This document shows, piece after piece, positions 37,456 to 44,362 of a DNA stretch of 64,000 bases. Under the pieces are notes generated by a model that worked only from the letters and a program-made list of their open reading frames with translations, had not been told where the DNA came from and searched no databases. A program made the translations under genes and the position numbers. The stretch is from Candidatus Latescibacterota bacterium (lineage in GTDB: Bacteria; Latescibacterota; UBA2968; GCA-2709665): NCBI GenBank assembly GCA_965237675.1, contig OZ250150.1:1120001-1184000 (forward strand), written 5' to 3'. The stretch's first letter is position 1, and each line of letters opens with the position of its first letter.

Positions 37456-38607
37456 TTACCAGTCGGCACGCAAAGAGCGCCTCAATTCGTCGTACCTTTT
37501 CGCTTCCCACGCCTGATAGTCTTCTGGTGCACGCCAGAATTCCTGCCATGCCGAGTTCAGGAGACCCACGATTGGCGTCAACGCGCCTGGCTTTGCTGTC
37601 ACCACACCGGTCCCTTCGACTCCTTCTTTTGTCGCCGAGACGACTTTCGATAGCAACTCTTCGGGGTAACACTGACGGTATTCGGGCTCTACTTTGTAGC
37701 CCATTATCTCAACGAAATCCCGCCAGGCCGTATCGATCCGCTCCACTTCCCCACCGAAGCCGTTCGCCGTCAGCATCGACAGCATCGCACGCATACGTGC
37801 ATCGTCTGCCGGGTGCGTTGATACAAACTTCAGAGGAGTCTCGAAGGGATCACCACCGCGTTTTACACATAGGTGATAATGAGACCAGGCAAAGGCCGGT
37901 CCTGTTGTCAGCACACCGAAGAGGTCACAGAAAAACTCTTCCATCCAGTATTTCGTCCACGAAGTTTCCCACAAACGTAGTTGATAGACCTTTCCCTTCG
38001 GCTTGTTTATGCGTTCGGCGGCTGTGATTTCACCTCTAAAGTACTCTACCATGTGAAACAGGTTTCGCTTGTAGGCCGCATGGTATGATACAAGAGCCGG
38101 AAGATCTAGTTTCTGCTTGTAATGAAACGGATGGCAAAGTTCGTGATAAATATCTGGGAGATGAAGCAGAAACCGGCTCTCGATTAAAGGCAAACAGAGA
38201 AGATTAAAGTCCCGATAAATATGAAAATAGCCCTGAGAGATATGGCTAACGACTGGGCGAATCAGAGGATACATTATCTCGCCGCAAACATCCGTAATCA
38301 GGCGGTTAAGGAACTCATCGTCTCGACTCACCCGGCTGAGGGCGAATGCGCCGACGTTTTCAACATTGTTGAGTTGACTTACAATGCGTTTAAATTCTCT
38401 CACTCGCCGGGGTGTCTGTAACGCCGTATCGACAATCGTCTCCGCGGACAATCGTTGTAGAGAAGCCTGCGACTCGTTGAGTTGTTTCAAACAGATCTTC
38501 CGCAATCTGTCATATTCGCACGGGTATTTCCCCTGTACGATTTGGCGTAACTGACGCGCCCGCTCGAGTGATTGGTCAATGGACCCGGTCAAGTACTTCT
38601 CGACCAT
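37456..38607 (-). CDS. putative zinc metallopeptidase (HExxH, gluzincin/M48-like) in the pAgo operon
   Basis: YHELCH (HELCH at 38145-38131), downstream EEFFCD third-ligand motif and STHPADDAR; ATG 38607 overlaps the upstream stop (TGATG). Confidence 0.7.
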   Translation of the reverse strand: MVEKYLTGSIDQSLERARQLRQIVQGKYPCEYDRLRKICLKQLNESQASLQRLSAETIVDTALQTPRRVREFKRIVSQLNNVENVGAFALSRVSRDDEFLNRLITDVCGEIMYPLIRPVVSHISQGYFHIYRDFNLLCLPLIESRFLLHLPDIYHELCHPFHYKQKLDLPALVSYHAAYKRNLFHMVEYFRGEITAAERINKPKGKVYQLRLWETSWTKYWMEEFFCDLFGVLTTGPAFAWSHYHLCVKRGGDPFETPLKFVSTHPADDARMRAMLSMLTANGFGGEVERIDTAWRDFVEIMGYKVEPEYRQCYPEELLSKVVSATKEGVEGTGVVTAKPGALTPIVGLLNSAWQEFWRAPEDYQAWEAKRYDELRRSLRADW

Positions 38608-38972
38608 CAATGCCCCCGAATTCGCCGGGCAATGTCCGCCCGTTCCTGTTCCAGTCTCTGAGCAAGGCTTTCTAACTTTTCGTGATAGCTAATATCAACC
38701 TGGCCATTGAGTAGACACTTGCCAAGCGCTTTCAGGCCGACGAAGGGGTCGCCGGTGTTTGACCGAAGCAAGCTGTCCAGGGTCAGCGCTTCAACGGATT
38801 GGGATTTGAGACCCTGATCGCTGGCATCGACAAGAAGCTGACCGAGTTTCAACTGATCTGGATCCGGCGAAAAAGTTCCGCCCTCTTCAAGGCGTTCAAT
38901 TACCCTGTCTATCAAGCTGCCATATTCCTCCACATCGGCGTAAACCCCCCTCAGCAAACTCAAATCACTCAT
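38607..38972 (-). CDS. 121-aa hypothetical helical protein in the pAgo operon
   Basis: ATGA overlap with the pAgo stop, GGAGG RBS, TGATG overlap with the next gene. Confidence 0.8.
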   Translation of the reverse strand: MSDLSLLRGVYADVEEYGSLIDRVIERLEEGGTFSPDPDQLKLGQLLVDASDQGLKSQSVEALTLDSLLRSNTGDPFVGLKALGKCLLNGQVDISYHEKLESLAQRLEQERADIARRIRGH

Positions 38973-43967: not shown

Positions 43968-44326
43968 TAACGCCTCCGCCTCCGAGATCGGATGAACTGA
44001 AGGTATTCCACAAGTGCTTCTTCTTCTTCCACGGTAACGGTTCCAATGCGAGCAGCAAAGCTGGATAAAGAAGACTGACCCTCGGCCGATCGATCTTTTG
44101 GCACGGGATAACCGGCCAATTTCATCAATAGTTCGTAGGGTACACGATAGAGTTCGGCGAGTTTGTACAAATTCTGCGGGGCCGGCGTCTTTATCTTGCC
44201 GTGTTCCAACTGGCTTAAATAGGCGTTCGAGATCCCAGTCTTTGCCTCGACAGCCCGGAGCGTCAACTCGAGCTTGTTTCGCGCCGATGCAAGAAAGGTT
44301 CCCAGTTTTTCTTCTGACCGTTCCAT
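43967..44326 (-). CDS. XRE-family HTH transcriptional regulator
   Basis: LTLRAVEAKTGISNAYLSQLEHGKIKTP; TAATG overlap with the cas4-like start; likely start ATG 44326. Confidence 0.9.
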   Translation of the reverse strand: MERSEEKLGTFLASARNKLELTLRAVEAKTGISNAYLSQLEHGKIKTPAPQNLYKLAELYRVPYELLMKLAGYPVPKDRSAEGQSSLSSFAARIGTVTVEEEEALVEYLQFIRSRRRRR

Positions 44327-44362
44327 ATTGCTAAATATATTTAATGTTGCTAAGTTTGTCAA
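44327..44362 (-). promoter_or_regulatory. sigma70-type promoter of the pAgo operon (probably leaderless) with direct-repeat operator
   Basis: TTGACA(44362-44357)-17nt-TATATT(44339-44334)-7nt-ATG; TTAGCAA(C/T)AT repeated starting at 44353 and 44334. Confidence 0.7.

Follow-up and report, generated by a model that had tools for sequence, protein, structure and literature searches.

Long prokaryotic Argonautes (pAgos) of the PliAgo type cut RNA with DNA guides (Lisitskaya et al. 2022, PMC9360449), and DNA-guided RNA cutting is described in the literature as a biochemical property of three D-R pAgos, namely PliAgo, RslAgo and VbAgo. In its account of gene neighbourhoods, PMC9360449 places a Cas4-related PD-(D/E)XK nuclease upstream of these pAgos, together with a helix-turn-helix (HTH) regulator or, in a sister group, a sigma-70 family factor, and its Discussion treats the natural function of D-R pAgos as an open question. 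The Cas4-family enzymes ACE1 and ACE2 are defined in PMC12094033 (Mol Cell 2025), and the passages concerned give ACE2 an average length of 313 aa and leave ACE2 systems uncharacterised. Here we analyse a 64,000-nucleotide stretch of a Candidatus Latescibacterota genome (contig OZ250150.1, positions 1,120,001 to 1,184,000 of the forward strand; hereafter the window), in which an operon of this kind, interrupted by an insertion sequence (IS), continues into two genes: p121, for a protein of 121 aa, and p383, for an HExxH protein of 383 aa.

The HTH–nuclease–pAgo part of the locus is already published as the PliAgo-type operon, and the window locus is a new, broken member of that known type. The p121–p383 module is an undescribed feature of the PliAgo-type system. 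Gene identities, linkage, motif invariance and the IS break are directly supported, and we favour, with evenly poised confidence, the reading that p121–p383 forms a portable, partner-gated protease switch within an IS-interrupted PliAgo-type cassette.

Literature searches on Argonaute with Cas4-like and metalloprotease themes yielded no paper that connects a pAgo with a metallopeptidase, in agreement with an earlier reading of the stretch (the sequence-only reading), which knew of no characterised pAgo system with a peptidase effector. Neither "protease" nor "peptidase" occurs in the main text of PMC9360449 (Lisitskaya 2022) or in that of PMC6299218 (Ryazansky 2018). The figures and supplements of these papers may depict the genes; the places where the two genes could appear are Fig. 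1b and Supplementary Fig. 1 of the former and Fig. 6 and the orthogroup tables of the latter.

The features of the locus are as follows:

44334-44362, minus strand: sigma-70-like promoter, with the -35 hexamer TTGACA at 44362-44357, a 17-nt spacer and the -10 hexamer TATATT at 44339-44334
43967-44326, minus strand: XRE-type HTH regulator, 119 aa from its likely start (Pfam HTH_19/HTH_3, E 6e-12)
43121-43967, minus strand: 5' part of the gene for a Cas4-family (ACE2-like) PD-(D/E)XK nuclease (PADLOC Aga_Cas4-like_Nuc, E 9.9e-113)
41427-43120, plus strand: IS of 1694 bp (Pfam DDE_Tnp_1_4, E 1.7e-156), with its transposase gene at 41510-42874 (plus strand)
41334-41426, minus strand: displaced 3' fragment of the Cas4-like gene with CxxCx5C, its three Cys invariant in intact homologues
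38969-41344, minus strand: long pAgo of the PliAgo group, 791 aa (PDB 7r8f, E 4.8e-208)
38607-38972, minus strand: p121, a 121-aa protein modelled as five helices (AlphaFold2 and complex models; no family in the libraries)
37456-38607, minus strand: p383, 383 aa, with HExxH and E-x-x-C-D motifs, of a family without a name (invariant motifs, AlphaFold2 model)
36832-37455, minus strand: DUF123 protein, 207 aa, a lineage-specific sixth gene (Pfam DUF123, E 1.4e-15)

The pAgo matched the PADLOC pAgo_II model with 1025 bits, and its best phmmer match in the PDB was PliAgo (7r8f, E 4.8e-208; residues 1-785 of the query against 1-784 of the chain), with an identity of 40.7% over 788 aligned columns. 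Residues D564/E593/D627/D763 align with D563/E592/D626/D762 of PliAgo, the tetrad positions given in PMC9360449, and the group-specific lysines are kept (K566/K760, equivalent to PliAgo K565/K759). In 13 homologues, D564, E593 and D763 show no variation, and D627 almost none. Judged by sequence, the window protein is a PliAgo-type (D-R) long pAgo with an intact DEDD tetrad; given 41% identity to PliAgo and the retention of all catalytic and group-specific residues, it presumably slices complementary RNA using DNA guides. The identities that the sequence-only reading had assigned to the pAgo and the Cas4-like gene hold (1025 bits to pAgo_II and E 9.9e-113 to the PADLOC nuclease model, respectively).

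Linkage of p121 and p383 to Argonaute, and loci without it

Linkage was assessed in both directions. Ascertainment by p383 in contigs from one genome per species gave 80 loci, 61 of them with at least 85% p383 coverage, and 54 of the 61 had at least 4.1 kb of upstream sequence and were assessable. A full pAgo gene lies directly upstream in 47/54: full HTH, Cas4 and pAgo genes are present in 43, and in four the full pAgo is accompanied by a weak or absent Cas4 or HTH gene (L047, L061, L063, L070). The pAgo is partial in three loci (L009, L015, L029) and absent or a trace in four (L011, L019, L017, L039). The p383-ascertained loci span many bacterial phyla and include two archaeal records.

For the opposite direction, the best 80 of 200 confirmed metagenome loci ascertained by pAgo were used. 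All 54 loci with at least 1600 nt downstream contain p383; among the 26 shorter ones, p383 begins in 18, and the other 8 have at most 337 nt left. The Cas4-like gene is present in 58/58 loci with at least 1400 nt upstream and the HTH gene in 55/58. An open reading frame (ORF) of 105-135 aa ending at the p383 start was found in 132 of the 136 loci in which that start was found. The sequence-only reading had proposed a co-occurrence check and held that its idea would fail if homologues of the two downstream genes were not enriched next to pAgos; the linkage turned out to be tight and reciprocal (p383 in 54/54 pAgo loci, full pAgo in 47/54 p383 loci).

The same arrangement surrounds the studied enzymes. 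Locus L051 (Pseudooceanicola lipolyticus) encodes PliAgo itself, and this locus and the RslAgo locus contain the same five genes. The latter lies on the R. slithyformis conjugative plasmid pRUNSL03, where RefSeq annotates an HTH regulator, a PD-(D/E)XK nuclease and three hypothetical proteins: WP_013921749.1, which is the RslAgo accession in the Methods of PMC9360449, then one of 125 aa and one of 378 aa. Locus L081 encodes VbAgo (1620 bits to PDB 9v65), then a 137-aa ORF starting MSSLGQL and a 438-aa p383 relative, which aligned with p383 in hhalign at a probability of 96.9% (E 1.9e-10).

The neighbours of the RslAgo cassette (L173) on pRUNSL03, at 7444-9623, are genes for a multiubiquitin-domain protein, a ThiF-family adenylyltransferase and a DUF6527 protein; they form a ubiquitin-like conjugation-type cluster, so that the setting looks like a defence island. 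Five records came from a plasmid search, and in four the match extended over 80% of the query or more; among viral contigs, the p383 profile yielded 31 pattern matches and zero relatives.

In most loci of the pAgo clade, p383 is the last gene of the cassette. The end of p383 is present in 119 loci, 13 of which were dropped as having less than 700 nt downstream; in 77 of the remaining 106, no co-directional ORF follows within 80 nt, and a general effector downstream of p383 was accordingly rejected for this clade. Two Dehalococcoidia loci (L061, L063) have no upstream Cas4-like gene and carry a 323-aa ORF after p383 with an N-terminal Cys, D...D-x-K and a C-terminal CxxCx5C; it was unmatched by the Cas4 profile and may be a replaced or relocated nuclease. 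Six Bacteroidota loci (L049, L050, L053, L054, L062, L065) encode a P-loop (GTGKS) protein of 717-745 aa at most 61 nt past p383, which may be an extra clade-specific component. Among 160 related loci, the DUF123 gene occurs only in the window and in its closest relatives L009, L011, L015 and L019, which are deletion forms; it may be an added effector of one lineage or merely a neighbour gene of the sublineage.

The pair also occurs where the pAgo is missing. Six loci (L009, L011, L015, L019, L021, L039) keep HTH, p121 and p383, with Cas4 and pAgo lost or reduced to remnants, and L017 has p121 and p383 without the three upstream genes, amid other defence-type genes. All seven pAgo-less loci retain an intact p383 ORF of 382-389 aa, and the HTH gene accompanies the pair in six of them. 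Comparing L009 with L015 gave a dN/dS ratio of 0.14, and the near-identical pair L011 and L019 gave 0.23.

Distant p383 relatives (430-520 aa) are found in arrays composed of a small ORF, a p383-like gene and a gene for a protein of ~215 aa (L078, L079, L083, L084, L087, L088; ~8.9-11.4 kb in most). The third gene is dCTP-deaminase-like in 3/3 cases tested with Pfam (PF22769, E 1e-24 to 1e-32), and all six are mutually homologous; Pfam also identified a divergent HTH gene upstream of the array in L083 and L087. The array proteins had no match in PADLOC 2.0.0, and the combination of small ORF, p383-like gene and dCTP-deaminase-like gene is apparently undescribed. Two members of the p383 family end in a C-terminal CHAT domain (P0126, 609 aa, E 4e-9; P0149, 632 aa, E 2e-4). 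The extension of a further member, P0154 (799 aa), contains a second HExxH motif. Since deletions of Cas4 and pAgo leave the pair intact, and distant relatives stand beside dCTP-deaminase-like genes, it looks like an autonomous module.

The p383 enzyme and its modelled partner

p383 represents a sizeable protein family without a name, defined by a two-motif signature. A search of a collection clustered at 90% gave 654 homologues at E <=0.001; the 120 listed are 55-93% identical to p383, all unnamed or "hypothetical", and none has a Pfam domain. An exhaustive profile search recovered 921 representative clusters, 255 of them at E <=1e-30. Residues H155, E156, C158, H159, E224, C227, D228, H243, H245, H265 and D268 are invariant in 24/24 aligned homologues, and the HELCH motif mentioned in the sequence-only reading is likewise invariant among them. 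The signature, HExxH followed after 50-65 residues by E-x-x-C-D-L-F-G/A, was present in 11/11 distant relatives checked.

The AlphaFold2 model of p383 (pLDDT 88.5, pTM 0.86) comprises a helical N-terminal domain, three short strands at 119-138, the HExxH helix at 152-162 and a long helix bearing E224. This last helix spans 204-235, and the modelled interface patch that contains H155 and H159 also includes E224. Because a sheet is followed by the HExxH helix and then by a Glu-bearing helix, the layout is predicted to be that of a gluzincin, with a zincin-like core, and from this we infer protease activity. Membership of the M78 family was considered and rejected: PF06114 gave no match, and an hhalign comparison with three M78 proteins encoded in this genome reached only 1% probability, over 18 columns at the second motif. 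The nearest named ESM Atlas clusters, U49 and M48, lay only at 0.79, a level often reached by chance, and serve as a lead only.

p121 is modelled as a five-helix bundle (AlphaFold2 pLDDT 83), for which a fold search gave no match and the Pfam, NCBIfam, PADLOC and PHROG libraries no family. The protein is poorly conserved save for an exact N-terminus, M-S-x-x-G/S-L, and a C-terminal L-E-x-L-A...E-R...R-x-R-G; 123 of the 132 ORFs in the p121 slot start with M-S. In the same loci, identity is 29-31% for p121 vs 43% for p383.

The modelled p383+p121 complex reached an ipSAE of 0.87 (runs 0.89, 0.86 and 0.87) vs 0.00 for the best control, with at least 93% of contacts common to the runs and a partner pLDDT of at least 85. 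Residues 1-10 of p121 contact the edge strand of p383 (126-133) as well as H155, E156, H159, E223/E224, C227, D228 and H243; in particular, p383 residue 159 pairs with p121 residue 5 and p383 residue 223 with p121 residue 6. This model covers the p121–peptidase part of the AlphaFold-Multimer modelling suggested in the sequence-only reading. Structure searches of the PDB with p383 or p121 surfaced no similar solved complex.

In zincins, substrates and N-terminal-plug inhibitors run along the edge strand over the HExxH helix. The N-terminus of p121 is correspondingly predicted by the model to sit in the HExxH cleft of p383, as an inhibitor plug or a held substrate. We favour a plug over an internal cleavage site because the motif is fixed at the protein start, and a plug inserted by its N-terminus would explain the M-S at this fixed position (123/132).

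The interrupted nuclease gene, junctions and promoter of the window copy

The IS splits codon 283 of the Cas4-like gene, leaving a 5' part of 282 codons + 1 nt. Excising the IS and one flanking TA (1692 nt) restores the frame between this part and the 3' fragment at 41426-41334, and the restored stop TGA (41336-41334) overlaps the pAgo ATG at 41344; the stop/start overlap after IS removal described in the sequence-only reading is thus in frame. The 5' part matches positions 1-280 of the 308 of the PADLOC profile Aga_Cas4-like_Nuc (PDLC02406) and holds C14, D179 and D193-W-K195, with CxxCx5C located in the displaced 3' fragment. These residues and the three C-terminal Cys are invariant in eight intact homologues. 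The Cas4-like protein encoded in the window is therefore without the three C-terminal cluster cysteines, and the IS puts 1.7 kb between the promoter and the pAgo, p121, p383 and DUF123 genes.

The Cas4-like gene of the window is interrupted, and an intact allele exists in public contigs. The empty site was found there in two runs, with 41426 joined to 43119 and 1692 nt skipped: the contig from run X9 is near-identical (1 and 3 letters differ in its two pieces), and that from run X7 belongs to a more distant relative. The insertion is therefore recent.

Thirteen other full-length copies of the IS, listed at 100% identity, are present in the same genome, and the 49 matches in total include copies at 82-98% and many short end-fragments, a pattern which indicates a recent transposition burst. 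The copies share the termini TAGCC...GGCTA, and the one in the window is inserted at a TA. In the copies read, the IS is followed by G in 8/8 and preceded by C in 5/8, from which the target appears to be a CTAG-like site with duplication of TA. A promoter-like site in the IS end facing the pAgo (41510-41481, 9/12) was rejected as no better than the shuffled expectation.

The region 36832-44362 holds six co-directional minus-strand ORFs whose coding regions abut or overlap. Five of these, with their junctions, had been described in the sequence-only reading and are present at those coordinates: TAATG at 43967 joins the HTH and Cas4-like genes, ATGA at 38972-38969 joins pAgo and p121, and TGATG at 38607 joins p121 and p383. 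The count of five is to be extended by the DUF123 gene (37455-36832), which follows at the p383 stop through a TAAATG junction. The lower G+C content remarked on earlier was also borne out, at 0.47-0.54 over 37.5-44.5 kb vs 0.57-0.63 in both flanks.

The proposed near-consensus promoter matches 11/12 consensus positions and is the top site of the region. Nine promoter-like sites were found vs 7.3 +/- 2.6 expected from shuffles, so that the match by itself is weak evidence. The HTH ORF is open to TTG 44362, the start assumed in the sequence-only reading. That TTG belongs to the -35 hexamer, and a Met stands at the position of ATG 44326 in 53/53 homologues examined (proteins of 112-128 aa); the start is more likely ATG 44326, which gives 119 aa. 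As this ATG lies only 8 nt past the -10 hexamer, the mRNA is probably leaderless or near-leaderless.

The HTH protein matched PADLOC models HTH_VI (1.4e-8) and capH (9.6e-7), and also the HTH part of the RmrA models. Its conservation pattern shows a variable linker between the HTH domain and a C-terminal helix that is conserved. Immediately upstream of the cassette promoter lies a DUF433 gene (44531-44773, minus strand; Pfam E 2.6e-25), after which comes a gene for an ankyrin-repeat protein at 44883-45689.

Interpretation and comparison with known systems

In the favoured reading, the XRE-HTH regulator would control the single promoter, and the Cas4-family nuclease, which presumably makes guides by analogy with ACE1, would make or trim single-stranded DNA guides. 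The long pAgo would use these guides to slice complementary RNA. The N-terminus of p121 would plug the catalytic cleft of p383 and hold the enzyme latent; a trigger would remove p121, and freed p383 would cleave a component of the cassette or a cell protein. Both the trigger and the substrate we infer, and the p121–p383 interface is modelled. The switch we favour would work independently of pAgo catalysis, and its first candidate substrate is the HTH repressor, whose cleavage would de-repress the operon. It is a candidate because its gene stays with the pair in 6/7 pAgo-less loci, because it matches the PADLOC capH model (9.6e-7) and because a variable linker precedes its conserved C-terminal helix. 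Portability is suggested because the pair survives deletion of Cas4 and pAgo and recurs with dCTP-deaminase-like genes, DUF123 and CHAT.

Several observations weigh against this reading. The perfect pAgo linkage and the overlap of pAgo stop and p121 start fit a pAgo-specific role equally well, and the pAgo-less loci may be recent decay products. Variable cargo is exceptional within the clade, where p383 is followed by no co-directional gene in 77/106 loci. In contrast to known repressor-protease pairs, the genes for the HTH protein and the peptidase do not lie next to each other. None of the 24 p383 members has a Pfam match at E up to 10, p383 has no NCBIfam, PHROG or PADLOC match, its best Foldseek E in the PDB is 0.25 despite a confident model, and its hhalign probability against M78 is 1%. 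The extra invariant C158, C227, H243, H245 and H265 could mean another chemistry, and proteolysis by p383 is itself deduced from motifs and a model. In the tool's calibration, the mark of the complex score was reached by 58/80 solved complexes and 2/110 mismatched pairs, counts that are only rough here, since our own alignments were used.

Type III-E Craspase, composed of gRAMP and TPR-CHAT, is an RNA-activated CRISPR protease. By likeness to such systems, p121 and p383 could be a pAgo-dependent proteolytic effector or signalling arm, as the sequence-only reading proposed, with guide-directed RNA recognition releasing or activating the peptidase; we regard this as unlikely. The linkage is complete by both ascertainment directions, pAgo and p121 are translationally coupled via ATGA, the pair is conserved in two deeply diverged D-R groups (PliAgo-type and VbAgo-type), two family members are fused to CHAT, and the sigma-70 family factor that takes the place of the HTH regulator in the VbAgo-type group, according to PMC9360449, recalls the type III-E sigma factor. 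The pAgo, however, keeps its own slicer tetrad and needs no effector, the pair is intact in seven pAgo-less loci and stands with dCTP-deaminase-like genes in loci without pAgo, and the modelled partner of p121 is p383 itself. The linkage and modelled interaction of the pair thus speak for part of the earlier claim, and activation of the peptidase by pAgo is left unsupported. A wider version, to which we likewise assign a low probability, would make pAgos of the PliAgo, RslAgo and VbAgo types the sensor half of the system: target engagement, or its failure, would free the plugged metallopeptidase, and the switch would be reused with dCTP-deaminase-like and CHAT effectors.

Omega-epsilon-zeta systems have a three-part toxin-antitoxin layout. 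A resemblance to that layout would allow a stand-alone toxin-antitoxin-like module, with p383 as toxin, p121 as antitoxin and HTH as regulator, serving as an abortive-infection backup or island stabiliser and mechanistically unconnected to pAgo; this, too, seems to us rather improbable. A small, faster-evolving upstream partner (29-31% identity for p121 vs 43% for p383) overlaps the enzyme gene through TGATG and is present as an ORF in 132/136 loci, the complex scored an ipSAE of 0.87 vs 0.00 for the control, and the partner is modelled in the active site. Three-gene HTH–p121–p383 loci exist (L021, L039), Cas4 and pAgo have repeatedly been lost with the pair kept, and the nearest named ESM Atlas clusters are Lit-type Peptidase_U49 and M48, albeit only at 0.79, a level often due to chance. 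Against a mere hitchhiker stand its presence in 54/54 loci at one fixed position and its co-divergence with pAgo across groups; the toxicity is only putative, and no PADLOC toxin or antitoxin model was matched. It is very unlikely, in our estimate, that p383 is no peptidase at all but a metal-dependent enzyme or scaffold, for instance for nucleic-acid ends or guide loading, with p121 as a structural subunit. The lack of a fold or family match to a known peptidase and the invariant Cys, His and Asp residues additional to those of a minimal zincin site point that way, and HExxH also occurs in non-peptidase enzymes, an alpha-ketoglutarate-dependent HEXXH enzyme being a described example. The HExxH and downstream Glu on a helix behind a small sheet, on the other hand, form a gluzincin layout, the model runs a peptide N-terminus along the edge strand and across the HExxH residues, and 18 columns align, non-significantly, with an M78 segment. 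That the downstream genes are unrelated neighbours with an operon look by chance has nothing in its favour beyond missing annotation; it is refuted by reciprocal linkage in 160 loci from many phyla, with two archaeal records, and by conserved order, spacing and overlaps, and its probability is negligible.

D-R pAgos are under development as programmable RNA nucleases. In every clade member examined, the three studied enzymes included, the pAgo gene is accompanied by genes for an HExxH enzyme that lacks annotation and for a partner whose modelled position is the active site of that enzyme, and the p121–p383 pair is a concrete candidate for a missing component of D-R pAgo systems. Should the module control or execute the response, work in vivo with pAgo alone would miss the real output of the system; the pair may explain how RNA-cutting Argonautes work in cells. 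The data suggest a reusable partner-gated protease module in defence islands, and if the sensor reading were true, it would be an Argonaute-coupled protease signalling pathway analogous to Craspase.

Among known systems, pairs of a repressor and a zinc peptidase include CapH/CapP of CBASS, ImmR/ImmA, DdrO/IrrE and RosmerTA RmrA. The cassette resembles CapH/CapP-type pairs in combining, within a defence operon, an XRE-HTH protein with a C-terminal extension (capH 9.6e-7) and an HExxH enzyme. It differs from them in that p383 lies outside M78 by Pfam and hhalign, in the distance of two to three genes between HTH and p383, and in the third component, p121, which the model places in the cleft. The likeness to M78 is at the level of motifs, with 18 columns aligned to the segment "E-x-x-A-N-x-F-A...P", non-significantly.

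Serralysin inhibitors and TIMPs are N-terminal-plug inhibitors of metallopeptidases, and p121 would share with them, according to the model, an extreme N-terminus in the cleft over the catalytic metal site. They are beta-barrel or OB-fold proteins acting on secreted enzymes, whereas p121, a cytoplasmic protein, is modelled as a bundle of five helices for which the fold search gave no match. With Craspase, the cassette shares a guide-directed RNA-targeting nuclease, a protease-like protein and a small partner, as well as a sigma factor in the sister pAgo group. The enzyme here is, however, of the HExxH type rather than a caspase-like CHAT protein, CHAT fusion being confined to two distant members; binding of pAgo by the pair is hypothetical, and the pAgo-less contexts speak against obligatory coupling.

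As regards the nuclease, the Cas4-like protein resembles ACE1 and ACE2 as presented in PMC12094033: it has the Cas4-family D...DxK, one N-terminal and three C-terminal Cys, and lies upstream of a slicing long pAgo. Restored, it would have ~312 aa, close to the ACE2 average of 313, and on this ground it is a candidate member of ACE2. ACE1 differs in being cyanobacterial and paired with DNA-targeting pAgos, and the passages of PMC12094033 on APACE1 and ACE systems name no peptidase partner. The PliAgo operon of PMC9360449 shares the three upstream genes, HTH, Cas4-related nuclease and pAgo, in the same order. The text of that paper names the nuclease and the regulator only, and neither the 121-aa nor the HExxH protein; the window copy differs further in its disruption by the IS and in its extra DUF123 gene.

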